This document shows, piece after piece, positions 9,641 to 36,790 of a stretch of 36,790 nt of DNA (the first letter of the stretch is position 1; every line of letters begins with the position of its first letter). The DNA is taken from the NCBI GenBank assembly GCA_020430425.1, contig JAGQJW010000002.1:1-36790 (forward strand). Direction: 5' to 3'. This DNA is from Nanobdellota archaeon (GTDB lineage Archaea; Nanobdellota; Nanobdellia; Woesearchaeales; SKGA01). Below the pieces are notes generated by a model. It was not told the DNA's origin and ran no database searches. It saw only the letters and a program-made list of their open reading frames with translations. A program made the position numbers and the translations under genes.

Positions 9641-9655
9641 ACTTCTTCTCTTCTC

Positions 9656-11539: not shown

Positions 11540-11549
11540 GGAAAACACA

Positions 11550-12029: not shown

Positions 12030-12030
12030 A

Positions 12031-12441: not shown

Positions 12442-12443
12442 CG

Positions 12444-12454
12444 TTTATATATAT
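12444..12454 (+). promoter_or_regulatory. TATA box (TTTATATATAT) about 26 nt upstream of the ATG at 12474
   Basis: Motif and spacing. Supports the ATG at 12474 over the TTG at 12459. Confidence 0.5.
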
Positions 12455-12473
12455 TCTCTTGTTCTTAAGGCCT

Positions 12474-13769
12474 ATGACTTTCATATCTATTCAAGAAGCA
12501 ATGCAGCAGGGAAGCGGAGAAGTCTCCCTTCGAGGATGGGTCCATCGAGAACGAGGAAGCAAGAAACTCAAATTCATTGTTCTACGGGATTCTTCAGCAA
12601 CTATTCAATGCGTCATTGAACGAAGCGTTGTCGGAGACGAATCCTTTGATGTTGCAGACAAGCTACAGCGAGAAGCAAGCATCACTCTCACAGGAATCAT
12701 CAAGAAGGATGATCGTGCACCAGGAGGGTTTGAACTTTCCGTCACTTCTTTTGAACTCGTTGGTGAAAGTGACCAGTTCCCTATCGAACAAGGGCAGTCA
12801 GTAGAATTTCTTGCAGACAATAGGCATCTTGCCATTCGAAGCAGAAAGATGATCGCCATCATGAAGATTCGAAGCACTTACATCCAAGCAAGAGAACGCT
12901 TCTTTGAACAGGAAGGATTCTATCGCTTTGATACTCCCATCCTTCAGCCGACCCAGAGTGAAGGAGGAAGCACCCTCTTTTCAGTCAATTACTATGAAGA
13001 TCAGATGTATTTGGCACAGACTTGGCAGCTCTACGGCGAGTCAGCGATCTTTGCTCTAGAGAAGGTCTACAACATGGGACCTACCTTTCGTGCCGAAAAA
13101 TCAAAGACATCTCGTCACCTCTCAGAATTCTGGATGGCAGAGATGGAAGCTGCGTGGATGAAACTAGCCGAGGTTACTGAATTCGCAAAGAAAGAACTCA
13201 AGTACTGTATCAAGGAAGTAGTCAGAGTACGAAGCGAAGAACTCAAATTTCTTGAACAGGATCCCCAAGCACTTCTTACTATGGCTGAAAAGGAATGGCC
13301 TACCATCAAATACAAGGAAGCACTAGCAACCCTCAAAGAGAAAGCAGGAATGGATGTACCCTTTGGAAAAGATCTTCGAACCATCGAAGAAGAGAAACTC
13401 ACCGAATTCTATGATACCCCCATCGTCGTCACTCATTATCCGACTGAAATCATGGCCTTCTACAAGCCAGGAGACAAAGATCATCCTGAAGAAGCGCTCT
13501 GTTTTGACATGCTTGCGCCTGCAGGCTACGGAGAGATCGTCGGGGGAAGTGAACGAAGCCTCGACGTTGCTGACATGGAACGACGACTCAAAGCAGATGG
13601 GGAGGACCCGGCAGACTATAATTTCTATTTCGATACCAGAAGATATGGCTCAGTACCGCACTCAGGCTACGGAGTGGGCGTAGAGCGAGTAATCCGTTGG
13701 ATCTGTGGGCTTGAGAGCATCAAAGACGCAATACCCTTCCCTCGAACCATGCTTCGCTACAAACCGTAA
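12474..13769 (+). CDS. asnS: Asparaginyl-tRNA synthetase
   Basis: N-terminal OB fold (VSLRGWVHRERGSKKLKFIVLRD), class II motif 2 FRAEKSKTSRHLSEFWMAEMEAAW (AsnRS-specific) and motif 3 GYGVGVERVIRWICGLESIKDAIPFPR. Confidence 0.92.
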   Translation: MTFISIQEAMQQGSGEVSLRGWVHRERGSKKLKFIVLRDSSATIQCVIERSVVGDESFDVADKLQREASITLTGIIKKDDRAPGGFELSVTSFELVGESDQFPIEQGQSVEFLADNRHLAIRSRKMIAIMKIRSTYIQARERFFEQEGFYRFDTPILQPTQSEGGSTLFSVNYYEDQMYLAQTWQLYGESAIFALEKVYNMGPTFRAEKSKTSRHLSEFWMAEMEAAWMKLAEVTEFAKKELKYCIKEVVRVRSEELKFLEQDPQALLTMAEKEWPTIKYKEALATLKEKAGMDVPFGKDLRTIEEEKLTEFYDTPIVVTHYPTEIMAFYKPGDKDHPEEALCFDMLAPAGYGEIVGGSERSLDVADMERRLKADGEDPADYNFYFDTRRYGSVPHSGYGVGVERVIRWICGLESIKDAIPFPRTMLRYKP

Positions 13770-13805
13770 AGCATATATTCTGCTCTTCTCTAGATTTAGA
13801 GGTAT

Positions 13806-14069
13806 ATGGATGAATCTGGGAACCTTCTAACTAGGATAAACACTTTTTTTGGCTGTCTCACTAAAGTACGATACGTCAAGACCTACCAAACCCTTAAGGA
13901 TAAATCATACCACCAAGAAGATATCTCCATCATCAAGAAGGACTATGATACCCTCGCAAATATTCTCTATAAATTACCTCCTCGAAAACAGGACGGGGCA
14001 AAGAATCTTCTCAATGATCTGGATAAAAGAATCATGAACTATCATAAATTCGGTATGGATAAAGAGTAA
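13806..14069 (+). CDS. Hypothetical small protein (87 aa)
   Basis: ORF with a GAGGT Shine-Dalgarno sequence and a TATA-like GCATATATTC about 30 nt upstream. No motif recognised. Confidence 0.5.
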   Translation: MDESGNLLTRINTFFGCLTKVRYVKTYQTLKDKSYHQEDISIIKKDYDTLANILYKLPPRKQDGAKNLLNDLDKRIMNYHKFGMDKE

Positions 14070-14070
14070 T

Positions 14071-15264
14071 CTATTGCTCAAGGATGTGCTGCGCGAGATC
14101 AACCATCCGCTCCTGAAAGACCGTCTTTTTCTCACCATCAGCCTGTTCCTTATCAAGTGACTGCAGGAGTTCCTTGATACATCGTTTCTCATCACCAGAA
14201 AAAGGAAGCTGACCAAGATGCTCTTCTATAGTCTCTTTCTCTACATCCTGATGCGCAACTGATGATGCCGTCAATTCCTCAAACAATTTACTATATAGCT
14301 TGTTGGTGTTCTTGAGCACAATGTATGCTCCCTTGTCATAACAACGCTCGACCAAAGATTTCATATCCATGTCGCTGGTTTTTCCTTCCACTGTCCCGAA
14401 CAACCGTATGAGAACAATCGCCTGATCAAGGGTCTCTTTTTCAATAGCAAGAGAAATTTTCTCATGAGCCTCCTCGCTGGTCAACCCTGAACAATCAACT
14501 TTCAGGGAAACCACTTCTTTGCTAGGAATAAAAAGATGCTCAAAATCATCATTGTCATAATAGACAAACGAACCTCTCCTGAGATCATCCAATTCTGAAA
14601 AACTATTTGGAAAGGTAGGACCGGGATATACTACATCCTTGTATCGTTCACTTGAGAACTTATTGACGATATGCACGTGACCTCCTGCATAGTAGGTGAA
14701 ACCAGAAGGCAACAAATCAAGAGGGGAAGCATCCATGCTCTCTAGCTTTGGAGTCTTAAGCTCTTGGATTGCCGTGTGGAACATGAATATTTTCTTTCCG
14801 ACAGGAATATCGGTCGTATCAATCTTTCTGTATTGCTGTTGATCAAGCATACCTGCCCGACCCATGATGCCAGTGATAAGCACATTTGTTTTTGGATCTT
14901 TGGTGAACTCCAGTTTGAGATCGCCTTTTTCAGTCAACTCACCTTTAGCGACATTAATGACCAGACCCGCTAGCTCCAGAACGTCAAGCATGGTTCTACC
15001 GTGCGGAGAATAGTCGTGACTACCAGGGATGATATAGACAGGAATCTTTGCCATGGATAATCGTTTAAGCTGGGCGGTCACGAACTTGAGCGCATCGACT
15101 CGAGGAAGTGCGGTGTTGAAGAGATCTCCTGCAAGCAAGACAAAATCAACCTCCTTCTCAAGGGCAAAACCAATTACATACTTGAAATTATCATGGCCTA
15201 ATTTAGCCAGACGAAGATCCTTATAGCCATCAATGTGACAGTCAGCAAAATGAACAAACCTCAT
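14071..15264 (-). CDS. mre11: Mre11/SbcD-family DNA repair phosphoesterase (nuclease)
   Basis: Calcineurin-like phosphoesterase motifs appear in order: FADCHI (DxH), LLAGDLFN (GD), PGSHDY (a GNHD variant), FMFHTA and GGHVHI. The 397-aa length is typical of archaeal Mre11. Confidence 0.8.
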   Translation of the reverse strand: MRFVHFADCHIDGYKDLRLAKLGHDNFKYVIGFALEKEVDFVLLAGDLFNTALPRVDALKFVTAQLKRLSMAKIPVYIIPGSHDYSPHGRTMLDVLELAGLVINVAKGELTEKGDLKLEFTKDPKTNVLITGIMGRAGMLDQQQYRKIDTTDIPVGKKIFMFHTAIQELKTPKLESMDASPLDLLPSGFTYYAGGHVHIVNKFSSERYKDVVYPGPTFPNSFSELDDLRRGSFVYYDNDDFEHLFIPSKEVVSLKVDCSGLTSEEAHEKISLAIEKETLDQAIVLIRLFGTVEGKTSDMDMKSLVERCYDKGAYIVLKNTNKLYSKLFEELTASSVAHQDVEKETIEEHLGQLPFSGDEKRCIKELLQSLDKEQADGEKKTVFQERMVDLAQHILEQ

Positions 15265-22969: not shown

Positions 22970-24646
22970 TTATTTTTTCCTTGTTGAAATGGCAAGCTCA
23001 TCAAGCTGTGCTTGACTTACCGAACTTGGAGAATCCATCATCAGATCGACAGCATCCTTGTTTTTTGGAAAAGCAATAACCTCTCTGATATTCTCTGCTC
23101 CTGCAAGAAGCATGACCATCCTGTCAAGACCAAAAGCAAGACCTCCGTGAGGTGGTGCTCCATACTCAAACGCACCTAGCAAGAAACCGAACTTCTCTTT
23201 CTGTTCCTGTTCGGTTATGCCTAAGGCATTGAACACTTCCACCTGCAGATCTCTCTGATGGATCCTGATGCTTCCACCACCAAGCTCAACACCATTAAGC
23301 GTCAAATCATAGGCTTTTGATTTAGCGTGGTGAGGCTCTGTTGCAAGCAGGTGTCTATCTTCTTCTTGAGGACTGGTGAATGGGTGGTGCATCGCAACAT
23401 ATCGACTATCTTCTTCACTCCATTCCATCAAGGGGAAATCAGTGATCCACAAGAAACTCCATTTCTCTTTGATCAGCTGCAGCTCTTTTCCCAGATGCAG
23501 TCGAACAGCACCAAGTGCTGCGGGAACAACGTGAATAGAATCTGCAACAAAGAAGAGATACTCATTATCCTTTAGCTCGACAGGAACATCCTTGAGGAAC
23601 TTTGCAATACCGCCAGCAAGATTTCCTTCTTCTTTTTTCACCCAAGCAAGACCTTTTGCACCGTAGACTTTAGCGATATCCGTCAGCTTATCGATCTGTT
23701 TTCTGGAAAAGTCACCAGCGACCTTCAAGCAACGAACAACTTCTGCTTCTTTGAAGATAGAAAAATCAGTTGCCTTTGCCCATTTCGTAACCTCTTCAAT
23801 CTCAAGACCAAAACGAACATCAGGCTTATCACTTCCAAACCGGAGCATGGCTTCGTCATACTTCATTCTCGCAAAAGGAATCGATAATTCGACACCGATG
23901 GTCTCTTTCCAGACCCGTGCAATCATCCCTTCCATAACTGAGTAGATATCCTCCTCTTGAACATAGGACATCTCCAGATCAATCTGAGTGAATTCTGGTT
24001 GCCTATCGGCTCGCAAATCCTCGTCACGAAAACATTTCACGATCTGCAAGTATCGATCAAGACCACCGACCTGAAAGAGCTGCTTGAAAATCTGTGGACT
24101 CTGCGGAAGCGCATAGAATTTCCCTTGGTTCACCCTGCTTGGTACCAGATAGTCTCTTGCACCTTCAGGAGTGCTCTTTCCAAGAATAGGCGTTTCCATC
24201 TCAAGGAACCCCAGTTCATCAAAATATTTTCGAACAGACATGGTCGCCTTGTGACGAAGAATAAGATTCTTTTGCATGTGTGAGGAACGAAGATCAAGAT
24301 ATCTATACTTGAGTCTTGTCTCTTCAGTTGCATTCTCATCAAGCGGAAGCGGTGCTGACCTGTTAAGAAGAATAACCTCTTTTGCCTGCACTTCAATCTC
24401 TCCTGTCTCCAGTTTCTTATTTGCTTCTGGTTTCTTGACTACTGTTCCTTTCACTTGGATGACTGACTCCTTTGAAGCGTCGATAGGTTTGTTTGAAGTC
24501 ACTTGCGTGATTCCGTATCTATCTCGAATATCAATAAAGGTGACTGCACCATGTGTTCGGATACTCTGTACCCAACCTGCAAGGGTCACTTCCTGACCTT
24601 CATTTGTCGCTCTCAACTCTCCACACGTATGACTTCGATACATCAC
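22970..24646 (-). CDS. aspS: Aspartyl-tRNA synthetase, bacterial type (with GAD-like insertion domain)
   Basis: OB-fold N-terminus (VTLAGWVQSIRTHGAVTFIDIRDRYG), motif 2 FRDEDLRADRQPEFTQIDLEMSY, GSDKPDVRFGLE followed by an insertion of about 130 aa, then WITDFPLMEW, HHPFTSP and motif 3 GGLAFGLDRMVMLLAG. The 558-aa length fits the bacterial type. Confidence 0.93.
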   Translation of the reverse strand: MMYRSHTCGELRATNEGQEVTLAGWVQSIRTHGAVTFIDIRDRYGITQVTSNKPIDASKESVIQVKGTVVKKPEANKKLETGEIEVQAKEVILLNRSAPLPLDENATEETRLKYRYLDLRSSHMQKNLILRHKATMSVRKYFDELGFLEMETPILGKSTPEGARDYLVPSRVNQGKFYALPQSPQIFKQLFQVGGLDRYLQIVKCFRDEDLRADRQPEFTQIDLEMSYVQEEDIYSVMEGMIARVWKETIGVELSIPFARMKYDEAMLRFGSDKPDVRFGLEIEEVTKWAKATDFSIFKEAEVVRCLKVAGDFSRKQIDKLTDIAKVYGAKGLAWVKKEEGNLAGGIAKFLKDVPVELKDNEYLFFVADSIHVVPAALGAVRLHLGKELQLIKEKWSFLWITDFPLMEWSEEDSRYVAMHHPFTSPQEEDRHLLATEPHHAKSKAYDLTLNGVELGGGSIRIHQRDLQVEVFNALGITEQEQKEKFGFLLGAFEYGAPPHGGLAFGLDRMVMLLAGAENIREVIAFPKNKDAVDLMMDSPSSVSQAQLDELAISTRKK

Positions 24647-25217: not shown

Positions 25218-25802
25218 TTATTTACCTTTCATCTGGATGTCATACAAGATATCCTGAGTTTTAGAAAGATTATATTTTAATCCTTCTATCTTCTTTCTCA
25301 TATCAATCCCTCGAAAATCAATGGTCAAAAATAATCCCATCAACTCTTCTAGAGCGATGCTTATCCGTTCGACCTCCTTGAACTCTTTCTCGGTGGCTAA
25401 TTTGAGAGCTCTTCTGGCAAGCTCACCAGAACAGTCGCACAGTCCTGCAAGATAAATGTCTGCAGGAACCTCCAGCTCCTTTGTCAAAGGAAATGATCCT
25501 GATTCAATAAATGAGAGGTAGCATTGAGCCTCTACATATTCTTCCAGTGCGGCAGCGTATGCTCCTACTTCCTTTGCATCATATCTCTTAAGAAGGGCTC
25601 TTACTTTTGACCGTTGTTTTTTTGCCTGCAAGAGAAGCTGTCTTGCTTTCTTGATCTCATTTCGATGCAAAGCATAGATCGCTTGCTTAGAGGGTTTAAG
25701 AATATCTCGTGAAAGGGTGATGATCTGATCCCTGATCAGGTCATTTTTCTTGTAGTCGTTTTGGATACGAGAAAATTCCTTTTGCAAACCGCTCTGTGCC
25801 AT
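25218..25802 (-). CDS. Translin-family protein (archaeal translin-like)
   Basis: All-helical, 194 aa. EEYVEAQCYLSFIESGSFP...ADIYLAGLCDCSGELARRAL matches the translin pattern E-EyvEa..f...YllGl.DltGEL.R. Confidence 0.65.
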   Translation of the reverse strand: MAQSGLQKEFSRIQNDYKKNDLIRDQIITLSRDILKPSKQAIYALHRNEIKKARQLLLQAKKQRSKVRALLKRYDAKEVGAYAAALEEYVEAQCYLSFIESGSFPLTKELEVPADIYLAGLCDCSGELARRALKLATEKEFKEVERISIALEELMGLFLTIDFRGIDMRKKIEGLKYNLSKTQDILYDIQMKGK

Positions 25803-25909: not shown

Positions 25910-26488
25910 ATGGCAGCAACAGTTCTTGGCGGTACCATTGAGTTCATGGCTCAGCTAGGAATCTATGATATCATCCTGCCTTTTCTTCTGGTCTTCACCC
26001 TGATGTTTGCCACTCTTGAAAAGACTAAACTGCTTGGTGTGGAAATCATAGTAGACAAATCGGGGAAAGAACATTCCTATACTAGAAAGAACCTCAACAG
26101 CATCATCGCGTTCACCACGGCTTTTTTTGTCATCGCTTCAGCACAGCTGGTGCGTATCATCAGTGAAGTCATCGCAAACACCATGATTCTTCTTGTCACC
26201 GGACTCAGTTTCATGCTAGCTGTCGGACTTTCTCACTCTGGACAAGATGAATTCAAGCTCTCAAAGCTCGGCAAGGGCTGGGAGATAGGATTCTGGATAG
26301 CAAACCTCGTTGGAATCATTCTCATCTTTCTCAACGCTATCGGTTGGCTTGACAAGATCTATCAGTTCGTCACTCAAGGACTCAAGAATCCTCAAACCCT
26401 CTCCATCTTCCTCATCTTGGTTTTCGTGGGACTCATGGTCTGGATCACTTCAAGCCCTAAGAACAAACCAGAACGAAGCGATGATTAG
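25910..26488 (+). CDS. Multi-pass membrane protein, paralog 1 of 3 (unknown family)
   Basis: N-terminal motif LGIYDIILPFLLVFTLMFATLEKTKLLG, four to five TM helices and a basic/acidic C-terminal tail. Confidence 0.7.
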   Translation: MAATVLGGTIEFMAQLGIYDIILPFLLVFTLMFATLEKTKLLGVEIIVDKSGKEHSYTRKNLNSIIAFTTAFFVIASAQLVRIISEVIANTMILLVTGLSFMLAVGLSHSGQDEFKLSKLGKGWEIGFWIANLVGIILIFLNAIGWLDKIYQFVTQGLKNPQTLSIFLILVFVGLMVWITSSPKNKPERSDD

Positions 26489-26593
26489 ACTTTTTCTTGA
26501 GAATCAGCTTCTGTTTATAAGGTAATTTACCGAAAGGTTTTAAAAGGAAGACACCAATAAAGAACCTAAAGGAACTCGTGTGAGGCGATACAT

Positions 26594-27184
26594 ATGTATG
26601 GTTTAGGCTTTGATAATATGATTTTTACTCTTCAACAATGGGGCGTCATAGATGTAATTCTGCCCTTCATCCTGATCTTCACCATTGTCTTTGCGGTGAT
26701 GGAAAAGACCAAGATCCTTGGCAGTGAAGACTATCAGGTGCGAAAATACGCTGCAATCATCTCAATGGTGGTGGCTTTTGCAGTTGTCGTTCCGCATATC
26801 ACCGGTGCATACTACTATGGATTTGATGCTGTACAGGTCATCAACAATGCACTTCCGCAAGTGGGTCTTCTTCTTGTGGCAATCGTTATGATGCTTTTGA
26901 CTATCGGACTCTGGACGGGTAAACGTGCAGACGGCTCAAAAGGAATCGGTACTTGGTTCACTATGGCATCCGTTGTGGTCGTTATCGGAATCTTCATCGC
27001 AAGCATGGGCTGGTGGCAAGTGCCTCAGTGGCTCTGGTTCTCATTGAACAGCGAACTCATTGCTTTGGTCGTTGCAATCCTCGTGTTTGGAATCATCATC
27101 AATTTCATCGCACAAGGAGAGAAGAAACCCGACAAGGACAAGAAGCCTCTTTCAAAAGACATCCAAGAGTTTCTTCAGGGATGA
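26594..27184 (+). CDS. Multi-pass membrane protein, paralog 2 of 3 (unknown family)
   Basis: N-terminal motif WGVIDVILPFILIFTIVFAVMEKTKILG is nearly identical in pattern to paralog 1. Same topology, with a Lys-rich tail. Confidence 0.7.
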   Translation: MYGLGFDNMIFTLQQWGVIDVILPFILIFTIVFAVMEKTKILGSEDYQVRKYAAIISMVVAFAVVVPHITGAYYYGFDAVQVINNALPQVGLLLVAIVMMLLTIGLWTGKRADGSKGIGTWFTMASVVVVIGIFIASMGWWQVPQWLWFSLNSELIALVVAILVFGIIINFIAQGEKKPDKDKKPLSKDIQEFLQG

Positions 27185-27224
27185 TTCTTTCCCTTTTTTT
27201 ATTTTATAATGGTTGAGGAATAGT

Positions 27225-27884
27225 ATGGCAACATTTTTGGACGTATCACTATTTGGCTACTTCGGTTCTATCTTCATTTTCCTATTCGTCTTTGCGATTG
27301 TCTGGGGAATCCTTACTTGGGCAAAAATCTTCAAGGGCGTACCAGGAGAGAAAGGAATCTATGGACTAGTTGCACTTTCAATAGGCCTTATCGTCATGAT
27401 CTCAAGCGACACGTCAACACTCATCGCGACCATGGCACCTTGGTTTGCCGTTCTCATGATCTTTGTCTTTCTGGTCTTTCTCATCTTTCGGATGTTCTCA
27501 GGAGACGATCACAGCCAACTATCAAGTGCCATAAAATCGCCAGGAGTCTACTGGACACTCATCGTCCTTTCAGTCATCATCTTGCTTGCAAGCCTCTCTT
27601 CAACCTTTGGACAGCGACTGCTTGATGACGGTCAAGGAACAACTACCAGCGTCAATATAGACTCTAGAAATGAAGTGACTAATCCGCAGGAAATTACTGA
27701 TGGAACAACATCTACGACCACGACGACAACAGATGCTGTATCTGGCTCGACGGCAACCAATAGCTTTAGCGATAATGTCCTCTCAACGATCACCCATCCA
27801 AAAGTCCTAGGACTCATCATGATGATGTTCATATCCTTTTTTGCAATCCTTCTGATTGCACGATCACAGGATCCAAACGTATAA
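27225..27884 (+). CDS. Multi-pass membrane protein, divergent paralog 3 of 3, with a Thr-rich extracytoplasmic linker
   Basis: ORF 27213 (TTG) trimmed to the ATG at 27225, which has a GAGG Shine-Dalgarno sequence 7 nt upstream. FGYFGSIFIFLFVFAIVWGILTWAKIFKG aligns with the paralog motif. A low-complexity stretch TDGTTSTTTTTTDAVSGSTATNS precedes the last TM helix. Confidence 0.68.
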   Translation: MATFLDVSLFGYFGSIFIFLFVFAIVWGILTWAKIFKGVPGEKGIYGLVALSIGLIVMISSDTSTLIATMAPWFAVLMIFVFLVFLIFRMFSGDDHSQLSSAIKSPGVYWTLIVLSVIILLASLSSTFGQRLLDDGQGTTTSVNIDSRNEVTNPQEITDGTTSTTTTTTDAVSGSTATNSFSDNVLSTITHPKVLGLIMMMFISFFAILLIARSQDPNV

Positions 27885-27888
27885 TAAA

Positions 27889-28329
27889 ATGGCAGACCCT
27901 TTACCTATCAACCAACTCCCGAACATGGGGCAAGCACCTTCGATGTCAGGAGGCTTTCAGTCATCTGGAGGTCAACCTCTGCAGACGTTCTCTGATCCTC
28001 ACACTACTGCAACCAATGAAGAACTCATTGAAGCGATCATCGATGAAAAATGGAACGAGCTCCTTAAGGACGTCAACAAGATCATCGAGTGGAAAAATCA
28101 GACGGAGACAAGAGTCACCACGATCGAACAAGAGATCAAGGATATGAAAGACCAGTTCGATAAGCTGCATCAAGCACTTCTTGGAAAGATCGGCGAGTAT
28201 GATAAACACATTCTTGATATCGGAACAGAAATACAGTCCATGGAAAAGGTATTCGCTAAAGTGCTTCCTGTCTTCACCCAAAATGTCTCAGAGCTTTCTA
28301 GAATAACTGATGATCTCAAACAACGATAG
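27889..28329 (+). CDS. Coiled-coil protein with a disordered Gly/Gln/Ser/Pro-rich N-terminus (unknown function)
   Basis: ORF 27856 (TTG) overlaps the upstream gene, so the ATG at 27889 is preferred; it lies 4 nt after the upstream stop. Heptad-like helical sequence runs from EELIEAIIDEKWNELLKDVNKIIEWKNQ onward. Confidence 0.62.
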   Translation: MADPLPINQLPNMGQAPSMSGGFQSSGGQPLQTFSDPHTTATNEELIEAIIDEKWNELLKDVNKIIEWKNQTETRVTTIEQEIKDMKDQFDKLHQALLGKIGEYDKHILDIGTEIQSMEKVFAKVLPVFTQNVSELSRITDDLKQR

Positions 28330-28331
28330 GA

Positions 28332-28811
28332 TCATTCATGATGCTGTTCGTGCACTTCTTTTCCCTGATCTTTTTGATGGAACCTTTTTCTTAAGAAATC
28401 ATTCACTTCCTTTCTCGTTACAAAATCAACCGGCTGCCAATACTCAACATATTTCTGAATGACCTTGAGCTCATTTCTTGATGCGAAATTCTCAATCTCA
28501 TCACTAAGCATGCTGACTTTCTCAAAAATATCCCTCATCTTCAACTTGATCTCAGCGATATCATCATTGATGATGCGCAAATCATCATAATGGTTTTTTT
28601 CCACCTCAACAATATTATGTTCTGTTGTCTGGGATTTTTTTCGCAGAGTGCCGTACCGTTCCTCAAGAATCTTTAATCTTGTTGCAACGTTATTGAGCTG
28701 AGAACCTGCAAGAGCCATCTCTTTTGCATCTTCTTTTGTCCCTTCATTCTTATGTCTGGCAACATGCTCTTTTGGATCAGGTTGATTAGGAAACAATTCA
28801 GGCTCGACCAT
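28332..28811 (-). CDS. Coiled-coil protein with a disordered charged N-terminus (unknown function)
   Basis: LNNVATRLKILEERYGTLRKK...IAEIKLKMRDIFEKVSMLSDEIENFASRNELKVIQKYVEYWQPVDFVTRKEV. A TATA box lies about 28 nt upstream of the ATG. Confidence 0.62.
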   Translation of the reverse strand: MVEPELFPNQPDPKEHVARHKNEGTKEDAKEMALAGSQLNNVATRLKILEERYGTLRKKSQTTEHNIVEVEKNHYDDLRIINDDIAEIKLKMRDIFEKVSMLSDEIENFASRNELKVIQKYVEYWQPVDFVTRKEVNDFLRKRFHQKDQGKEVHEQHHE

Positions 28812-28957: not shown

Positions 28958-31252
28958 GTGCCGGATACTAAACTCAAGTATGATGTAATTAGAGAGGGGG
29001 ATGACGTAGTTCTTGTCGTTGACTATAGCAATCGAGGTAGGATTCCCTCTATCGAAGACGATGAAATCACCATGTCCGAGACCATGACCATGCTCTTGGA
29101 GAACCAGACGGCAACAAGAATCATCTTCTCACAAAAACACGATTATGAATACGATTTCTCTCAAGTCACACTTATCTTAGAGCTAGCAAGGTTGTATGCG
29201 AAACTGGTGCGAAATAAAGAACTTTTCAGTTATCCGGCGCTCGCCCAGAACATCGCCGCTTCCTTGCTAGCATCTAAGTATAACGAACTGCATAACATTC
29301 TGTTTGCAGAACTCAAGAAGGATCCTCTTGCCTGCTATGTGCTGCTACGTCGGATCAGAAGAAGAGAACAGATCCAGCTTGACAAAGAAATCGATGAAGA
29401 CCTGATTGCAAGCCTCAAACATTATGTCGGATTGCTTGATTACATCCTCCAGCTTCTTGAAGGAACAAAACTGCTCACCGTTGCAAGACCTTACCTTGAA
29501 GGATATCAAGTGGGAACCCGAGATGTCTACAGAAGAATCTTCACTCCCCTCATCAAGCCCGATTTCATGTTCACCAAACTCATGGCAGCATACCCGAAGA
29601 ATGCCATCGAACTAGAGAACTATACTCTTGAAGGCGACATCGAGATCATTGTCTTTGAACTGCCCGATACCGTCCAATATCTGTATCATGTCATGCCACC
29701 CGAGTTCAAGCTCAACGAGGATCAGTACGAACTTTTAGATACGGCAAGAAAAATTCTTAGCGAACACACTCCGGATCAAGATGAATTCACTGATCCTGCA
29801 AGGATGAGAGATGTCTTCTACCATGTGGGAAAGGATCTGCTTGTTGAACTCTCAGAATATCGAGAGATGAATCTCAAGGATGAAGAAGTGGAGAATCTTG
29901 CAAAGATACTCGTACGTTACACTGTTGGCTTTGGTCTGATAGAAGTGCTTCTTGCCGATGAGAATATGCAGGATATTTCCGTGAACAGCCCTGCAGGAGA
30001 ATTACCCATCTTCATAGTCCATGCAGACTATGATGACTGCATCACCAACATCTATCCGACACCAAGCGATGCAGAAAGCTGGGCATCAAAGCTTCGGCTC
30101 ATCAGTGGACGACCATTGGATGAGGCAAACCCTATCCTTGACACTGAACTGGAACTTCCTGGGGCAAGCATTCGAACCTCAACCATCACAAAACCGCTTG
30201 ATCCAACAGGCATCGCGTTCTCCTTTCGACGACACCGAGACAAGCCATGGACGCTTCCGCTTTTCCTCAAGTATCAGATGATCACTCCCCTTGCTGCTGG
30301 TCTGCTTTCTTTTCTCATTGACGGAACGAGAAGCATGCTCATCTGCGGAACGAGAAGCAGCGGAAAAAGCAGTTTTCTCTCAAGCCTCCTTGTTGAGATC
30401 ATGAGACGACACCGAATCATTACCATCGAAGACACTTTAGAACTACCAACAAAGTCACTTCGACAACTAGGTTTCAACATACAACCGATGAAAGTAGCAA
30501 GCGCTCTTGCCAAAAGCGGTGATGAGTTCAGCGCGGAAGATGGCATTCGAAGCACGTTACGATTAGGAGACTCTGCTCTGATTGTAGGAGAGGTTCGAAG
30601 CGGAGAAGCAAAAGCACTCTATGAAGCAATGAGAGTAGGTGCAGCTGCAAATGTAGTTGCAGGAACAATCCACGGAGACAGCCCTTTTGGAGTATTCGAT
30701 CGACTGGTGAATGATATCGGTATTCCAAAAACATCCTTTAAGGCAACAGACATCATCGTCATCGCAAACCCTATCAAATCAGCAGATGGATTGCACAAGC
30801 TTCGACGAGTGCTCCAGATTACTGAGGTAAGAAAAGACTGGCAGGATGATCCTTCAAGTGAACACGGTTTTGTCGACCTGATGAAATACAATGCAGCAAC
30901 AGACCAATTAGAGCCTACTCCTGAGCTGCTCAATGGAGAGAGCGACATCCTCAAAGATATTGCCTCAAAAGTAAAAGAATATACGGGCAATTGGGATGCT
31001 ATGTGGGAGAACATCATCCTTCGAGGAAAGCTCAAAGAGCGGATCCTTGAGCTCAGTGAGAAGGAGAAGATGCCTGAACTTCTTGAAGCAGCTTTTGTTA
31101 TCCTCGCAAATGACATGTTCCACAAAACGGTGGAACGGGTCATCAAACGATCTGGAAAGACGGATAACGATCTCATCTATTTTGAATGGGATGACTGGTT
31201 GACTAAAGAAATAAAACGAATGAAACTGAAAAATGGACGAGAAAGCATATGA
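28958..31252 (+). CDS. Type II/IV secretion / type IV filament assembly ATPase (FlaI/GspE/VirB11 superfamily), oversized at 764 aa
   Basis: GTG start with a GGTGAGG Shine-Dalgarno sequence. YTVGFGLIEVLLADENMQDISVNSP, Walker A GTRSSGKS (nt 30347-30370), Asp box IITIEDTLEL, Walker B ALIVGEVRSGEA and His box GTIHGDSP. There is an N-terminal extension of about 300 aa and a C-terminal extension of about 130 aa. Confidence 0.88.
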   Translation: MPDTKLKYDVIREGDDVVLVVDYSNRGRIPSIEDDEITMSETMTMLLENQTATRIIFSQKHDYEYDFSQVTLILELARLYAKLVRNKELFSYPALAQNIAASLLASKYNELHNILFAELKKDPLACYVLLRRIRRREQIQLDKEIDEDLIASLKHYVGLLDYILQLLEGTKLLTVARPYLEGYQVGTRDVYRRIFTPLIKPDFMFTKLMAAYPKNAIELENYTLEGDIEIIVFELPDTVQYLYHVMPPEFKLNEDQYELLDTARKILSEHTPDQDEFTDPARMRDVFYHVGKDLLVELSEYREMNLKDEEVENLAKILVRYTVGFGLIEVLLADENMQDISVNSPAGELPIFIVHADYDDCITNIYPTPSDAESWASKLRLISGRPLDEANPILDTELELPGASIRTSTITKPLDPTGIAFSFRRHRDKPWTLPLFLKYQMITPLAAGLLSFLIDGTRSMLICGTRSSGKSSFLSSLLVEIMRRHRIITIEDTLELPTKSLRQLGFNIQPMKVASALAKSGDEFSAEDGIRSTLRLGDSALIVGEVRSGEAKALYEAMRVGAAANVVAGTIHGDSPFGVFDRLVNDIGIPKTSFKATDIIVIANPIKSADGLHKLRRVLQITEVRKDWQDDPSSEHGFVDLMKYNAATDQLEPTPELLNGESDILKDIASKVKEYTGNWDAMWENIILRGKLKERILELSEKEKMPELLEAAFVILANDMFHKTVERVIKRSGKTDNDLIYFEWDDWLTKEIKRMKLKNGRESI

Positions 31253-33452
31253 TCAGGTAGCATCTCTTTTCAAGGAGCGATTAGAGGATGAGCTTGCAGG
31301 AAAGAAACCTCAAGAAGAAACTGAGATAGAGTCTCGTGCCTATGATGAGTTCAAACAGCAATACCTCCCCAAGCATCTGAGCTTCTATGAGAAGATCTGT
31401 CAGTTCTCTGAAAAGACCTTACCAATGAAACCGCAGGAAAAAGATGTTCCTAAACTGCAAGAAGCTATCAATACCTGTCACCTCAACACGTCTCCAACTG
31501 GAATCTATAGTTCTTCTTTTGTCATCCCTTTAGGCATAGTCCTATTTGCGATAGTCTTCTTTTTCATGCTTCCTGTCCTTTTTGGAGGATTTCCCAACAT
31601 GTTCTTTATCATCTTCAGCCTCCTTGTAGCAGTGGGTCTGATGATCCCCCTACAGAAGCTTCCTTTTATCCTCGCAAACAGATGGCGACTCAAGGCAAGC
31701 AACCAGATGGTCCTTGCTATCTTCTACATGGTCACCTATATGCGACACACGTCAAACATAGAAAATGCGATCAACTTTGCAGCAGAACATCTTGCTCCAC
31801 CTCTCTCTTTAGATCTGCGAAAAGTCATGTGGGACGTAGAGACCCAGACCTATGACTCCATGAAAAACTCTCTTGATGCGTATCTACTTCGATGGAAAGA
31901 TTATAATATGGAGTTTGTCGAGAGCATCCACCTCATCCAATCAAGCCTTATGGAATCATCGAATGACCGCCGACTCAATAGCCTTGACAAGGCACTCACC
32001 GTCATCCTTGATGAGACTTTTGAGAAGATGCTGCACTATGCCCATGGACTCAAGGGACCGCTTACTACCTTGAATATGCTTGGAGTAGTACTTCCGATCC
32101 TTACTCTAGTCATCTTGCCACTGGTAGTGAGTTTCATGGATGGCTTTCGATGGTACCACCTCTTTGCCATCTACAATATTGCATTACCTGCTCTTGTCTA
32201 CTCATTAGGTATGAGCATCCTCACCACAAGACCTGGTGGCTCTGGACAGGAAGACATCACCAAGAAAAACCCCGAGCTCAAAAAATATCAAAACGTCGTA
32301 GTGACTGTGGGACAAAAGGAGCAGTACATCAAACCGATATATCTCTCACTCGCATTAGCTATTTTTCTTCTTTTCATCGGGTTCCTTCCTCTTCTCTGGT
32401 CAGCAGTAGGCTTTCCTGATTACGGTATCGTCAAGGATTCTGGAAGGGTCCGGATCATGGATATTGAAACTGCTAAGGCCGATGGTTGGACCGTACAGTA
32501 TTACTTTCTGGGATATCGAGAACGAGATGCTACAGGAGAACTCGTAGGTCCTTTTGGTCTTGGAGCAATGCTCTTGAGTCTTATGATCCCTCTAGGGATA
32601 GGATACAGTACAGGACTCTACTATAAGTATCGTACCCAGCATATCGTAAAGGTAAGAGAACAGGCAAAGAAACTGGAGCTGGAATTCTCAGGAGCACTTT
32701 TTCAGCTAGGAAACCGGATCGGTGATGGCATCCCTGCTGAAGCAGCCTTTGGAAGAGTAGCACAGCTCATGCCAGACACGGTCTCTGGAAAATTCTTTAA
32801 CTTAGTCCATGTAAATGTCACTAACTTAGGTATGAGTGTGGAGCAAGCGATCTTTGACAAGGATAAAGGTGCACTCAAGTATTACCCTTCTGACCTCATC
32901 GAGAGCAGCATGAAAGTACTTGTCGAGTCAAGCAAGAAAGGGCCTTTGGTTGCAAGTCAAGCTCTCATCAATGTCTCAGAATATCTTAAGCAGATGCATC
33001 GAGTAGACGAACGGCTCAAGGATCTTCTTGGAGATGTCATCTCTGGAATGAAGAGTCAGGTGTTGTTCTTAACTCCCGTCATTTCAGGAATAGTAGTAGG
33101 AATCACCAGCATGATCACTAAAATATTGGGAACACTAGGAGATAAAGTCAATTCACTAGGAAGCGCTGCAGGAACTGCAGGTGCAGGAGGTGGGGTGCTT
33201 CAGCTCTTTGGTGTAGGAATCCCTTCCTATCATTTTCAGATTGTAGTTGGACTCTATGTCGTACAACTATCCTATATCCTTACCGTCATCGCAAATGGCA
33301 TAGAAAACGGACCGGATAGAATAGGAGAAGAAACTAGTCTAGGAATGCAGATGACCAAATCGATTCTCATCTACACCGGCATCTCTTTTGCAGTGATTCT
33401 CATCTTCAACTTAGTGGCGACTACCATCCTGACAAATGTATCTGGACTATAG
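31233..33452 (+). CDS. FlaJ/TadC/PilC-like polytopic membrane platform protein (two T2SSF-like cytoplasmic domains), oversized at 739 aa
   Basis: Overlaps the ATPase gene by 20 nt. Two helical cytoplasmic modules (NIENAINFAAEHLAPPLSLDLRKVMWDVE... and ELEFSGALFQLGNRIGDGIPAEAAFGRVAQLMPD...) are each flanked by TM helices, as in FlaJ/TadB-C. Confidence 0.68.
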   Translation: MDEKAYDQVASLFKERLEDELAGKKPQEETEIESRAYDEFKQQYLPKHLSFYEKICQFSEKTLPMKPQEKDVPKLQEAINTCHLNTSPTGIYSSSFVIPLGIVLFAIVFFFMLPVLFGGFPNMFFIIFSLLVAVGLMIPLQKLPFILANRWRLKASNQMVLAIFYMVTYMRHTSNIENAINFAAEHLAPPLSLDLRKVMWDVETQTYDSMKNSLDAYLLRWKDYNMEFVESIHLIQSSLMESSNDRRLNSLDKALTVILDETFEKMLHYAHGLKGPLTTLNMLGVVLPILTLVILPLVVSFMDGFRWYHLFAIYNIALPALVYSLGMSILTTRPGGSGQEDITKKNPELKKYQNVVVTVGQKEQYIKPIYLSLALAIFLLFIGFLPLLWSAVGFPDYGIVKDSGRVRIMDIETAKADGWTVQYYFLGYRERDATGELVGPFGLGAMLLSLMIPLGIGYSTGLYYKYRTQHIVKVREQAKKLELEFSGALFQLGNRIGDGIPAEAAFGRVAQLMPDTVSGKFFNLVHVNVTNLGMSVEQAIFDKDKGALKYYPSDLIESSMKVLVESSKKGPLVASQALINVSEYLKQMHRVDERLKDLLGDVISGMKSQVLFLTPVISGIVVGITSMITKILGTLGDKVNSLGSAAGTAGAGGGVLQLFGVGIPSYHFQIVVGLYVVQLSYILTVIANGIENGPDRIGEETSLGMQMTKSILIYTGISFAVILIFNLVATTILTNVSGL

Positions 33453-33481: not shown

Positions 33482-36400
33482 TCAAGTAGTCTGGTCTGCG
33501 GGTGGCTGATACGCATCTGAACCCGCAACTTTCTGGACAATAGACGGGTAGGTATGTTCCAGATGCGCATTAAGAGTTTCGTTGGTTCCTTTCTCCTGCA
33601 ATAGTCTTGAAACAAAGGTCTCAAGCTCCTTCTCATCAAGTGCCGACAATGAATTCTTGAAATCACTAACGCGATTAGCAGAATAGAAGCTCATCACTCT
33701 CTCGACATTCCTGTCTTTGATCTTGTCAAAGAATCTTTCATAATATCTGATGACTATATCCTCATAAGGACGATCATTCAAGTAACCAACAGACTCCTGA
33801 TAACTCGCCCATCGTTGACCATTTGGATCAAAATAGCTGATAGTCCTTGAGGGTGACTGTAGGCTGGTGGTTCTGATAAGCGGCAATCGATCAACCACTT
33901 CCTTGAAGAAAGGAAGATTGATGATCAGTCCTCTTTCTGACTCATACTTCTTCGCCTCAGTCTGGATATTATTAATGGTTGTGACCGCATCCAACTGGAT
34001 GGCAGGAAGATCCCTGTTTGCTGTCCTGAACTGTTCATACTTAGTATATTCAGCGTTGTAGAAAGGCATGCTTTCAGCCCTATCCGGTTCGTGGAAGGCG
34101 ATGAATCTTTTTGGCGGAAATAATCTTCTAGATATTATCATATTATTGTCATCATCAGACCGTCGATAGTGTACTATTCCTGCTAGATTAATGTCTGCTA
34201 TATCTTCTACCCACTGATATTTTTTCGAATACAAATTTCCATAGAGCATCCTTCGAAAAGTCTCGTTCTCTTCTGAATGAAACGCATCATAAATTACTTG
34301 AGCAGATTCTCTTAGAGTATCAACTGTTGATTCGTATTTTTGAAGGTTCTTGCTCAGTAAAGATAACCGTTCATTCTTCTTTTTCTGCTTTCGTTCTTCT
34401 TCTCGATATTTCTTCTCAGCTGCTTTCCATTCCTTGTTCTTTTTCTTGAGATTCTTCAAGCTTTCCTTACTTAGACCCCAACTCTCATAATGTCCTCTCT
34501 CTTCAACAGGAATCAAATCTTTATATTTCTCATATCGGTCAGCGTCGTTCTTGATCTTTCGATCCTCGCTGATCTGCTCCATCTTGTTTCTCATATGGGA
34601 TGCCATCTTAGAAGAAAACTCATATGTCTTGACAACTGGCCATCTTCCTAATCTGTATAGTCCAACGGAACCACCAACCACTCCCCTGAACGCGTAGTTT
34701 CCTGCCTTGGCAATTCCATTTAAGGTCATCATGGTTCCTTGTCCAATCTTTCTGCCAGCATACTGAAGACCAGATATGGTCTTGGCTCTGACAGGAAGCG
34801 TCTTTTCGTACAGCATATTCATCTTATCTAACGAGTAACTTGCAACCTTTCCTGAAGCCTTCACTAGCTTATATCCTGCATATGCAGGCAAGAAGAGAGC
34901 TCCACCTACCAAGCCAAGACCGACCAACAATGGTGTTGCAACCGTCATGCCGATCCCTGAAACGACCTTATCTATGGTGATGGATGCATTGGCTGTTCGC
35001 TCGCCAAAGAACTGCCTATAAAAATCTCTGACCAGATCGAACTTGGAATTGAATTCCATCCGTTTCTGATATCTCTTTTTGCTGGTCAAATCCTTTTTCC
35101 TTTTTCTTTCATTTAGCCTTTGTTCCTGTAAATATTTTTTTCTGCTCTTTTCCAGATCCAAAATATACTCATCCAAATCCTTGAATTGAACACCAGTTCC
35201 CATCCGGTCAAGGAACCCGTTCTTTTTGAGAACAATCTTTCCATCAAACTCATCGAACTGCCTTTTCTTGGTTGTGGTCAAAACCAGTTGGTTTTCCCCT
35301 ATCTCTTCATAAGAAACAAATGATCCTGTTACGCTCTCAAACAGCGGTAATGATTCGATTTTCTTGATTGCTCTTGCTCTTGACTCCTTAAAGGACTCTG
35401 CCCACTTATCCATCCGGTTCGTAAGGCTCTCATCATAGTCCTGAAAGATCCTTTTCGTGGTCATTTTCATCTGAAGCCATTCTTCTTCTGGAACAGTAAT
35501 GTATGATTGGAGAATATTCCTGAGCGCGTTCTCTTTTCTGACTAATGATTCTGAAGGGACTTTCTTATTGAGGCTACGCATGTATTCATCACTGATATCA
35601 AGGATGCTTTTATTCAACTCGAGAGCAAGATCCTGTGCTGCAAGGTGCTGATAGATATTTTCCTGAAGCTTTCTTCTTCCCGCCATCCCGACATGACCTA
35701 AAGGCGTATCAATAATGAGTGATAATCGATGTATCTTTGAAAAAGCGTCGTAGTTCGCAAAATCATTCTCAAAACGAACCCCTGCTCTAGTGGCCACGAA
35801 CTGAGGTCCTCTCTCAGTATTAAAGAACAATTTTGCCCTGTATGAATCGGTCTGTATAGTTCTATCGAACTCAAGATAGCTCTTTTTTCTTGCACCGTGA
35901 TTTGTTCCATTGACCGTAAAAGGAATAATACTTTTCTGTGCTCTTGATGTCAAGTAATAATATTCTCTTGATCTGGCCTTACTGAATAGTTTCTCTCTTT
36001 GCTTCCTGAATTTCTTGTTAACAGTGATGGTTGTACCTTCAGTGATGGAAACCTTATCATCAGATGAAAAATTAACCACTCTGTTTCCGAATTTCAGCTT
36101 GTTCCTCTGTTCTTGACGAGAAAGAGATTTAGCATCAACTACTTTTGCGACATAATGGATTGACTTATTGTTCTTGACCGATTCGATATGCACTTCATCT
36201 GCTCCCGATTCAATGGCAGTAGAAACTCCTAGTGCCAAAGGCCTAAACCGCTGATAGAATTCGTTATCTTCTGGGACTCCTATGATGGTTGAGAGCAGCT
36301 CGTCAATCTCCGGTCCAGAAAATCCTTTACCATCACTTTTCATAGTCATCTTGTTCTTTGAGAACCTGACCTTAATCTCTTTAGGATTCGTATTATAAAG

Positions 36401-36538
36401 AGCTGAAAACAATTCGGTGACATACTCGGTGTTATCGCTAAAGAATGATGTTGAGACCTTTTCTTGTAGCTTCTGCTCGTTTACTGAGTAGAGGAAACCT
36501 TCTTTCCTGACAATCTTCTCTAATTTTTTAGCTGCCAT
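33482..36538 (-). CDS. Large (1018 aa) protein: weak GHKL-like (Hsp90/MutL/MORC-like) N-terminal region, central hydrophobic/Gly-rich segment, Lys/Glu-rich coiled coils and a C-terminal globular region
   Basis: An uninterrupted 3-kb ORF. By-eye GHKL-like elements are TELFSALYNTN, KSDGKGFSGPEIDELL (compare DNGIGM..eel), LALGVSTAIESGADEVHIES (compare GvGfySaflvAd.V.v.s) and EGTTITVNKKF (compare GTtv.v..LF). The hydrophobic segment VVSGIGMTVATPLLVGLGLVGGALFLPAYAGY spans residues 525-557. Basic coiled-coil tracts lie around residues 465-495 and 695-730. Confidence 0.75.
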   Translation of the reverse strand: MAAKKLEKIVRKEGFLYSVNEQKLQEKVSTSFFSDNTEYVTELFSALYNTNPKEIKVRFSKNKMTMKSDGKGFSGPEIDELLSTIIGVPEDNEFYQRFRPLALGVSTAIESGADEVHIESVKNNKSIHYVAKVVDAKSLSRQEQRNKLKFGNRVVNFSSDDKVSITEGTTITVNKKFRKQREKLFSKARSREYYYLTSRAQKSIIPFTVNGTNHGARKKSYLEFDRTIQTDSYRAKLFFNTERGPQFVATRAGVRFENDFANYDAFSKIHRLSLIIDTPLGHVGMAGRRKLQENIYQHLAAQDLALELNKSILDISDEYMRSLNKKVPSESLVRKENALRNILQSYITVPEEEWLQMKMTTKRIFQDYDESLTNRMDKWAESFKESRARAIKKIESLPLFESVTGSFVSYEEIGENQLVLTTTKKRQFDEFDGKIVLKKNGFLDRMGTGVQFKDLDEYILDLEKSRKKYLQEQRLNERKRKKDLTSKKRYQKRMEFNSKFDLVRDFYRQFFGERTANASITIDKVVSGIGMTVATPLLVGLGLVGGALFLPAYAGYKLVKASGKVASYSLDKMNMLYEKTLPVRAKTISGLQYAGRKIGQGTMMTLNGIAKAGNYAFRGVVGGSVGLYRLGRWPVVKTYEFSSKMASHMRNKMEQISEDRKIKNDADRYEKYKDLIPVEERGHYESWGLSKESLKNLKKKNKEWKAAEKKYREEERKQKKKNERLSLLSKNLQKYESTVDTLRESAQVIYDAFHSEENETFRRMLYGNLYSKKYQWVEDIADINLAGIVHYRRSDDDNNMIISRRLFPPKRFIAFHEPDRAESMPFYNAEYTKYEQFRTANRDLPAIQLDAVTTINNIQTEAKKYESERGLIINLPFFKEVVDRLPLIRTTSLQSPSRTISYFDPNGQRWASYQESVGYLNDRPYEDIVIRYYERFFDKIKDRNVERVMSFYSANRVSDFKNSLSALDEKELETFVSRLLQEKGTNETLNAHLEHTYPSIVQKVAGSDAYQPPADQTT

Positions 36539-36786
36539 TAAGATGATCCTCCTTCATGTACATAGGTCTTGTTGAGAAAAGAACTCATTTTCGGAACGAT
36601 CTTATTGTTGTAAGCAGAAATGTATGTAGTGACTGCAGTCAAGATTCCTGCTACTGCAAGATCGCCATAATCAGGATCGGTTGCCGTCTCCAACGCCTTT
36701 CTTACAAAGGAACTGTGTATGTTCAAAGAAAGAACTTCTTTACTTGAGAACGTATCAAAGATCCGCTCTTTTGTGGAACGTTTCAT
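36538..36786 (-). CDS. Hypothetical small protein (82 aa), translationally coupled to the 1018-aa gene
   Basis: Its TAA stop shares one nucleotide with the downstream ATG (TAATG). It has a hydrophobic stretch LAVAGILTAVTTYISAY. The region upstream is outside the window. Confidence 0.5.
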   Translation of the reverse strand: MKRSTKERIFDTFSSKEVLSLNIHSSFVRKALETATDPDYGDLAVAGILTAVTTYISAYNNKIVPKMSSFLNKTYVHEGGSS

Positions 36787-36790
36787 AGAG

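Follow-up and report, generated by a model that had tools for sequence, protein, structure and literature searches.

A predicted Hsp90-like pseudo-ATPase encoded next to a canonical Hsp90-like ATPase in DPANN archaea and in bacteria

The B gene and its truncated upstream neighbour

The stretch of DNA analysed here, referred to as the window, is 36,790 nucleotides (nt) long, comes from a Nanobdellota archaeon (GenBank assembly GCA_020430425.1) and is the entire contig on record (JAGQJW010000002.1). At one end of it, on the minus strand, a gene for a protein of 1018 amino acid residues, here termed B, follows the 3' end of a second gene, here termed A, which is cut by the edge of the window. The two frames meet in a TAATG junction, where the TAA of the A frame and the ATG of B have one base in common, and a Shine-Dalgarno-like GGAGG stands ahead of the ATG. 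The original prediction, made from the letters of the window, had proposed a real 1018-residue open reading frame (ORF), translationally coupled to an upstream partner in an operon that continues beyond the window, and all three points are upheld. Based on sequence comparisons, B represents an undescribed paralogue family of Hsp90-like proteins. In the public NCBI records B proteins are named 'hypothetical protein' and A proteins 'ATP-binding protein'.

The upstream frame had been taken for a small, 82-residue stoichiometric partner of B. Its Met, however, stands 4 nt inside the window edge and no stop codon precedes it, and 83 codons of the frame fall within the window. In a BLASTP comparison the encoded fragment matches residues 593-670 of the 724-residue A protein at locus L001 (E = 5e-9); it also matches the C-termini of three A paralogues at locus L004, and over its whole length it can be aligned with the C-termini of seven A proteins from archaea, at loci where A has 617-792 residues. 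Because of this end-to-end alignment and the lack of an upstream stop, the supposed partner is the C-terminal tail of an A protein of about 620-790 residues, in which the Met is internal. A separate small partner is therefore rejected, the fragment being homologous to the last ~80 residues of A.

The best homologue's locus (P0002) carries a complete A gene, which encodes 724 residues and lies directly upstream of B with a 4-nt overlap; the same order of A and B is found at the P0003 locus. In this A protein HATPase_c_3 (E = 9e-13) and the sacsin domain (SACS) are recognised, and A aligns with HtpG (E = 1.8e-12), middle-domain loop included. The motifs of A are complete, namely YVRELVQNSIDA (ELVQNSIDA), DDGxGM, SKIGKFGIGFVS (KIGKFGIGF), GT and NLSRN. 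A and B are paralogous over 260-450 residues (~390-450 in places), a span that covers the ATPase fold and the second (middle) domain. The C-terminal segment of A is archaeal-specific and co-occurs with an archaeal-specific C-terminal module of B. This segment has no sequence match in the Protein Data Bank (PDB), although it may resemble the C-terminal helices of Hsp90, and comparing its profile with that of the C-terminal module of B gave no relationship.

Fold, catalytic motifs and further regions of B

Single-sequence searches of B against Pfam, NCBIfam, PADLOC and the PDB returned no matches. A word-indexed protein search recovered the query alone, and its profile version added one 155-residue fragment. 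An exhaustive HMMER search of 1.84 billion representatives yielded 16 B homologues, most of them 790-1240 residues long and most afterwards assigned to DPANN loci; the metagenome collection contains no close relative of the window's B. The family diverges fast (17-37% identity), with conservation concentrated in the first ~200-330 and the last ~90 residues, and the family N-terminal profile recognises B with E = 2.4e-82 in hmmsearch. The N-terminal motifs, a hydrophobic run in mid-protein and the last ~95 residues are more than chance features, because they are conserved among the homologues.

A profile of B residues 1-300 searched against the PDB retrieved 16 TRAP1 sequences (E = 6e-6 to 4e-5), followed by Hsp83, MLH1 (1.5e-3), Hsp90 and Grp94. 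The alignment takes in the N-terminal strand/helix of Hsp90 (F..E..LL....LY....F.RELIS) at its start, from profile position 20, and the loop of the middle domain (VVDSEDIPLNLSRE against IDxPxFxLxLSxN) at its end. The same residues were modelled with AlphaFold2 and the 16-sequence alignment (predicted local distance difference test score, pLDDT, 78.7; predicted template modelling score 0.80). In a Foldseek comparison with the PDB, TRAP1 and cytosolic Hsp90 came top (E = 1e-12 to 1e-10; TRAP1 1.3e-12), with alignments of about 340 columns over the N and middle domains, and MutL N-terminal domains came next (E ~7e-11); 466 PDB matches had E <= 1e-3, and the top 50 are all Hsp90-family or MutL. 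Both the HMMER and the Foldseek alignments of B reach into the TRAP1 middle domain. Five of the 16 B members match HATPase_c_3 weakly and three match HATPase_c; none of the Pfam or NCBIfam Hsp90 models is reached by B, and the Hsp90 homology is remote.

The degenerate GHKL head and S5-like second domain that had been proposed are thus borne out by the PDB profile, the AlphaFold2 model and Foldseek, and the profile and structural check suggested for the Bergerat fold gave TRAP1 as its match in both cases. Judged by these comparisons, the first ~300 residues of B have the GHKL fold. Their nearest branch is the Hsp90 family (TRAP1, HtpG, Grp94), ahead of MutL and with MORC not compared directly, since the profile gives E = 6e-6 against 1.5e-3 for the MutL-type match and Foldseek 1e-12 against 7e-11.

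Four motif-like stretches of the head align with the GHKL motifs in both the family and the Hsp90 alignments, and they lie where they had originally been placed. In motif I, E42 is kept and A46 replaces the Mg-binding Asn (ELISN of Hsp90 corresponds to E42-L-F-S-A46), as predicted. The Asn is missing from all 87 non-identical B-type proteins, which typically read ELVQA.., ELFSx or ELISA, and is present in all five aligned A-type sequences. The Asp of motif II had likewise been thought shifted or replaced, but D69-G70-K71-G72 is a canonical DxGxG. Across the 16-homologue alignment G70 and G72 are invariant and K27, Y39, E42 and D69 nearly so, and bacterial B proteins additionally lose the second Gly of this motif. 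The motif III lid is degenerate: the query reads R99-P-L-A-L-G104-V, with no G-x-x-G-x-G, and the family consensus is GLAxAV, as compared with KFGIGF in A and GQFGVGF in TRAP1. G168-T169 of motif IV is retained. The second domain recognised in B ends at the Hsp90 catalytic-loop position (LIIDTPLGHVGMAGRRK in the query against NLSR(E/N) in relatives); where Hsp90 has the catalytic-loop Arg (NLSRE) the query has GHVGMAGRRK, and NLSR(N/E) is kept in a more distant B clade and in all A proteins.

Since none of the 87 B proteins has the Mg-binding Asn, its loss is, on the alignments, a fixed trait of the family and not decay in one lineage. As it lacks both this Asn and the Gly-rich lid, B is very probably unable to hydrolyse ATP. 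The original prediction had left the choice between a divergent ATPase and a pseudo-ATPase, and the evidence leans to the latter, the loss of Asn being universal in B and the adjacent A keeping every catalytic motif. B fails two of the four strict GHKL motifs yet clearly has the fold in the predicted structure.

Beyond the head, whole-protein searches of B against Pfam, NCBIfam and the PDB were empty, residues 300-922 not having been probed by profile. Similarity to Hsp90 was not detected past residue ~300-400, the Hsp90 C-terminal dimerisation domain itself not having been probed. In mid-protein, the segment at 525-556 has 32 uncharged residues with seven Gly, two Pro and a Kyte-Doolittle peak of 1.96, which agrees with the hydrophobic Gly-rich stretch first noticed there and is unusual for the superfamily. 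Among the archaeal B proteins, 15 of 16 hold one run of 27-46 residues without a charged residue or His, located between positions 476 and 661. These runs contain 3-9 Gly, and 14 of the 15 have one or two Pro. Their C-flank carries a net charge of 0 to +6 (positive in 14 of 15), their N-flank is non-negative in 12 of 15, and their edges bear a belt of Lys/Arg and Tyr; it is the character of the run that is conserved and not its sequence. Hardly any bacterial B protein, and no archaeal A protein, has a comparable segment. To our knowledge, no membrane-type hairpin has been described in Hsp90, MutL, MORC or sacsin proteins.

Further towards the C-terminus, the amphipathic Gly-rich region that had been noted was recovered at ~590-631, where the hydrophobic moment is moderate (0.37-0.48). 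The basic coiled coils of the original prediction held in part: K/E-rich helices are present, but 705-762 is the only stretch among them with a significant heptad score (0.66-0.68 against a 99th-percentile shuffle value of 0.52), and it is also the best-scored part of a single-sequence full-length model. A profile of the last ~95 residues matches archaeal B proteins only, among all loci, and found no relative in the PDB or Pfam. The features of the pair are collected in Table 1.

Table 1 Features of the A-B pair in the window and of the genes preceding the pair at two other archaeal loci.
Feature	Position	Strand	Basis or remark
B gene, 1018 residues, 'B-type' Hsp90-like protein, predicted pseudo-ATPase	33482..36538	-	ORF list; stop codon 33482-33484
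GGAGG, Shine-Dalgarno-like	36548-36552	-	Sequence reading; 9 nt 5' of the B ATG, within the end of the upstream gene
3' end of the A gene ('A-type' canonical Hsp90/sacsin-like ATPase, predicted)	36538..36790	-	Window edge cuts the gene
B residues 1-215, predicted Bergerat-fold (GHKL) domain, Hsp90 type	35894..36538	-	PDB profile, AlphaFold2, Foldseek, motif table
B residues 216-300, predicted start of Hsp90-middle/S5-like second domain	35639..35893	-	HMMER and Foldseek alignments, family alignment
B residues 301-524, linker of low conservation, largely helical and strongly basic (e.g. 470-500, ERKRKKDLTSKKRYQKR)	34967..35638	-	Composition, low-confidence single-sequence model
B residues 525-556, hydrophobic segment, uncharged and rich in Gly, Pro at 536 and 551 (VVSGIGMTVATPLLVGLGLVGGALFLPAYAGY), predicted membrane hairpin/anchor	34871..34966	-	Hydropathy, conservation
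B residues 590-635, Gly-rich basic moderately amphipathic region, family motif G-x-G-I-x-x-G-x-x-Y	34634..34771	-	Hydrophobic moment, alignments
B residues 705-762, K/E-rich coiled-coil-like helix	34253..34426	-	Heptad periodicity
B residues 923-1018, conserved helical C-terminal domain	33485..33772	-	Alignments; Y952 and F960 invariant; relatives end ...LV-x-EVGR
Four genes before the pair (about 280-297, 416-459, 320-370 and 440-465 residues)	L001 2624-7833; L009 4351-8697		Conserved order

Pairing, distribution and gene neighbourhood

The pair was surveyed with an alignment of A run against one genome per GTDB species, with hidden Markov models of A and of the B head, and with a separate metagenome scan. 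The genome scan gave 79 A loci. The archaeal loci belong to Woesearchaeota, Nanoarchaeota and one unclassified archaeon, and the bacterial loci to Myxococcota, Elusimicrobiota, Vulcanimicrobiota/Eremiobacterota, Burkholderiales, Nitrospirales and others; in all, the pair spans DPANN archaea and five or more bacterial phyla or orders. B lies directly downstream of A on the same strand at 58 of the 73 genome loci with room for it, and directly upstream at two more. The survey of homologues and their neighbours that had been recommended was thereby carried out, and the independent metagenome scan gave the same picture (B directly downstream of A in 56 of 64 loci with room). The A-B junction is often a 4-nt overlap.

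Four further genes precede the pair at loci L001 and L009, in the order g1-g2-g3-g4-A-B, and at L004 the arrangement is g3-g4-(A-B)x3. The pairs themselves occupy 7830-10004 (A) and 10001-13333 (B) in L001, and 8694-11072 (A) and 10963-14130 (B) in L009. The g2 protein (459 residues in L001) has a long coiled coil and a weak J-like C-terminus, in which the HPD motif is present in L001 and degenerate in L009; its J-domain matches are sub-threshold (Pfam E = 0.018, PDB E ~0.2). Three consecutive pairs occur on a Candidatus Woesearchaeota contig (P0008), with A and B of 708 and 1115, 680 and 935, and 704 and 905 residues. The pair in the window is of the DPANN subtype, with the uncharged Gly/Pro segment and the C-terminal helical domain in B and the specific C-terminal segment in A. 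Conservation of the operon in extremely reduced genomes, with three copies in one of them, suggests that it is important to these symbionts.

The three A-B pairs at L004 (2490-17636; same contig as L007, CALDOJ010000007.1) are followed by small paralogues of 171, 167 and 122 residues, with up to 56% identity, and by a 241-residue protein of unknown function. In bacteria, 20 A-B loci share a conserved neighbour, of which the sampled member (L017 8554-9930, minus strand, divergent) is an M48 (HtpX-like) peptidase; other bacterial neighbours are a Ser/Thr kinase, an AAA ATPase and a trypsin-like peptidase. Several B genes accompany one A at L015, L025 and L080, and 3-5 B-type genes surround one A at several loci. 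A 559-residue protein at L017 (16720-18399, minus strand) joins a B-like head to TPR repeats. The B proteins tested match no Pfam, NCBIfam or PADLOC model, and defining the family would annotate hundreds of long orphan genes.

On the other side of B in the window, 29 nt separate the 3' side of its gene from a convergent gene for a 739-residue polytopic membrane protein, for which no family match was obtained. The membrane-protein gene is overlapped by 20 nt by that of a 764-residue FlaI/TadA-like secretion ATPase (region 28958-33452 and 25910-27884, both plus strand), which matches T2SSE with E = 4.5e-16 and the FlaI model with E = 3.5e-34, the latter far under the model cutoff. Upstream of these genes are three small membrane proteins, the first two paralogous (32% identity, E = 2e-15) and the third with a Thr-rich tract. 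These genes may form a type IV pilus-like locus of a divergent archaeal type. A functional link of B with the FlaI-like ATPase and the membrane protein was rejected, as the genes are convergent with B and missing at every homologous locus.

The window also encodes a translin-family protein (25218-25802, minus strand; E = 3.7e-20), a family uncommon in prokaryotes, and two small coiled-coil proteins without family assignment (27856-28811) lie between it and the pilus-like genes. Two genes encode class II tRNA synthetases of the Asp/Asn/Lys type (12459-13769, plus strand, and 22970-24646, minus strand), one of 436 residues and the other of 558 residues with the GAD insertion of the bacterial aspartyl-tRNA synthetase type. 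Because the two are only ~23-25% identical, the organism seems to possess one synthetase of archaeal type and one of bacterial type. An archaeal RNase P RNA (1526-1837, minus strand; 118 bits, complete model) lies in the window, which is therefore archaeal; the program-made ORFs at 1316-1648 and 1790-2395 overlap this RNA, and the first of them is probably no gene.

Interpretation and comparison with known systems

The explanation favoured here, which we consider to have about an even chance of being correct, is that in archaea A pairs with B in a heterodimeric Hsp90-like clamp, which the non-hydrolysing B tethers to the membrane. B would be the second subunit of a two-gene Hsp90-like module, with A, encoded upstream, carrying every catalytic motif. 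The two proteins would heterodimerise and close through their N-terminal domains in an ATP-dependent manner, as Hsp90 dimers do, A supplying hydrolysis and B acting as a structural, asymmetric partner. We infer the heterodimer because the genes overlap, the proteins are paralogous, B keeps the N-terminal strand/helix that is the exchange element of Hsp90, and the lineage-specific C-termini of the two proteins co-occur. Engineered Hsp90 heterodimers reportedly need hydrolysis in one protomer only (Mishra & Bolon 2014). The DPANN B proteins have gained three extras, namely the long basic helical region, the 27-46-residue Gly/Pro segment and the private C-terminal domain. We think that the segment at 525-556 is a membrane hairpin that dips into the cytoplasmic face of the membrane and keeps the two large parts of the protein on the cytoplasmic side, because the ATPase head must be cytoplasmic, the C-flank is basic, the region downstream is highly charged and Pro lies in mid-segment. 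The outcome would be an ATP-driven clamp at the membrane, with membrane-proximal proteins or the membrane itself as clients and with the four operon proteins taking part. The identity of the proteins and their pairing are far more secure than this mechanism.

Several points weigh against it. The catalytic Glu and the adenine-contacting Asp are both retained in B, which one would not expect of a purely structural subunit. Hsp90 requires ATP binding in both protomers, and loss of the Asn may abolish binding by B, in which case the closing mechanism may differ. The membrane segment was judged by hydropathy, charge and conservation only; its 32 residues are short for two full transmembrane helices, and the single-sequence full-length AlphaFold model of B (pLDDT 38.7) is unusable and gives no confident structure for it. 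The module does not as such entail membrane tethering, because bacterial A-B pairs are without the segment. The profiles of g1, g3 and g4 found no PDB relatives and give no functional hint, and of the window's own operon only the 3' end of A and B are visible in the window.

It seems unlikely that the pair is instead a conflict or immune module, in which A would be an ATPase switch, B a diversifying sensor or adaptor, and the archaeal membrane segment an effector or localisation element that, for example, disrupts the membrane on activation. The multiple B genes per A, the B-like heads fused to TPR repeats and the neighbouring M48 and trypsin-like peptidases, Ser/Thr kinase and AAA ATPase are all in keeping with such a module, as are the three tandem pairs in one archaeon and the fast divergence of B. 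The N-terminus of A also resembles the sacsin-like ATPase TmtA of Tiamat (PADLOC E = 3e-15 to 5e-10) and MzaB. However, the matches of full-length A to TmtA and MzaB extend over ~90 generic ATP-binding residues, and neither B nor the A fragment has a match in PADLOC-DB 2.0. In archaea the operon has housekeeping genes as neighbours, and the genomes are very small; domains of nucleases or other recognised toxins were not found, and viral contigs carry single generic GHKL genes without B.

The uncharged run could cross the membrane once, and B would then be a single-pass type II membrane protein with a cytoplasmic head and its C-terminal ~460 residues outside, tying the ATPase to the cell surface, for instance for host contact. 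DPANN archaea are mostly surface-attached symbionts (PMC6349945), and the type IV pilus-like ATPase and polytopic membrane protein adjoin the B gene in the window. Such a topology is nevertheless quite doubtful: the charges on the two flanks of the run speak against translocation of the C-side, the extremely K/E-rich, coiled-coil-like region downstream is atypical of a secreted domain, the mid-segment Pro is conserved in 14 of 15 runs, and the pilus genes are convergent and missing at all other loci.

Retention of E42, D69, G70, G72 and G168-T169 could also mean that B, though highly divergent, is active as a GHKL ATPase in its own right, working as a homodimer whose adjacency to A reflects shared regulation only, the more so as an Asn (N49) lies one turn past the lost one in the query's closest clade. 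This is improbable, since N49 is not conserved across the wider family, the lid is lost (as is, in bacterial B proteins, the second Gly of DxGxG), and the pairing with A is tight, often overlapping and found in about 80-88% of loci.

There is likewise only a slim chance that residues 525-556 are a buried core or a glycine-zipper oligomerisation element of a soluble protein: the hydropathy peak is moderate and the high Gly content permits tight helix packing, but a run of 27-46 residues free of charge and His, flanked by Lys/Arg and Tyr and kept in character but not in sequence in 15 of 16 proteins, is a lipid-facing pattern. The MORC/MutL likeness first suggested was right as to GHKL and wrong as to family, and a DNA-clamping protein of that type is rejected as scarcely credible, for although MutL N-terminal domains are good structural matches, MLH1 appears in the profile search and B has basic coiled coils, Hsp90 ranks first by sequence and structure (MORC not compared directly) with its specific N-terminal and middle-loop signatures, and no MutL C-terminal, MORC C-terminal, CW, helix-turn-helix or other DNA-binding domain was detected.

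For the membrane-tethered heterodimeric clamp, the cellular role may be remodelling of membrane-proximal proteins, shaping of the membrane or an immune-type function, the last hinted at by the bacterial contexts. A bolder version, offered tentatively and with well under an even chance of holding, is that the six-gene DPANN operon encodes a natural heterodimeric Hsp90-like machine whose dead subunit is wedged in the membrane by a reticulon-like hairpin, so that its closure would reshape the membrane or clients bound to it, for example at the host-contact site. If this is true, bacteria would possess, in the hairpin-free A-B pair, a second kind of Hsp90 system that is widespread and has gone unrecognised.

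The full-text literature, subscription journals lying outside the coverage, yielded no account of a gene pair with one canonical and one degenerate Hsp90-like member, or of an Hsp90 relative anchored in the membrane. Several known systems resemble the pair in part. Atlastin and the bacterial dynamin-like proteins dimerise through an N-terminal domain in a nucleotide-dependent way and have helical bundles and a short mid-protein hydrophobic hairpin or paddle, and the bacterial proteins are often encoded by tandem paralogous gene pairs. They are, however, GTPases of the dynamin/TRAFAC class without homology to A or B, and the analogy serves as a mechanistic lead only. MLH1-PMS2 (MutL-alpha) and the Topo VI-B-like partners, as obligate heterodimers whose ATPase sites are unequal, offer the concept of paralogous GHKL subunits, one catalytically degenerate, in an asymmetric clamp; A and B differ from these in lying on the Hsp90 branch, in having no DNA-related domains and in the complete loss of the Mg-binding Asn in B.

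Sacsin and the sacsin-like ATPases (Pfam SACS, NCBIfam NF047352, Tiamat TmtA) are matched by A over the ATP-binding region. We know of no membrane segment in sacsin or TmtA. These proteins are single giant polypeptides, in contrast to the canonical/degenerate gene pair, and B matches none of their models. Sacsin joins Hsp90-like modules with a J domain (PMC3710099), to which the weak J-like C-terminus of the archaeal g2 protein may be compared.

The closest likeness is to Hsp90 itself (HtpG, TRAP1, Grp94). HtpG is reported to be absent from Archaea, and only uncharacterised 'HSP90-like' proteins have been mentioned in archaea and bacteria; one of them, a 982-residue 'HSP90-like' protein of Methanosarcina mazei (NP_634445.1) without the Hsp90 marker residues, was used as an outgroup (Chen et al. 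2006, PMC1525184). Its length falls within the range of B. Like Hsp90, B has a Bergerat N domain followed by an S5-like middle domain, with the N-terminal strand/helix signature, a RELIS-type helix 1, DxGxG and the GT motif; the NLSR catalytic loop is found in its relatives and in its partner A. B differs in the lack of the Mg-binding Asn and the Gly-rich lid, in passing no curated Hsp90 model, and in the added membrane-type segment, coiled coil and private C-terminal domain. Hsp90, among the most intensively studied ATP-driven machines, is a homodimer, of which TRAP1 closes asymmetrically, and why two identical protomers act asymmetrically is an open question in the field. In the A-B pair two different genes take the place of one, and the asymmetry would be fixed in them, which would make the pair a natural system for studying one-sided hydrolysis.

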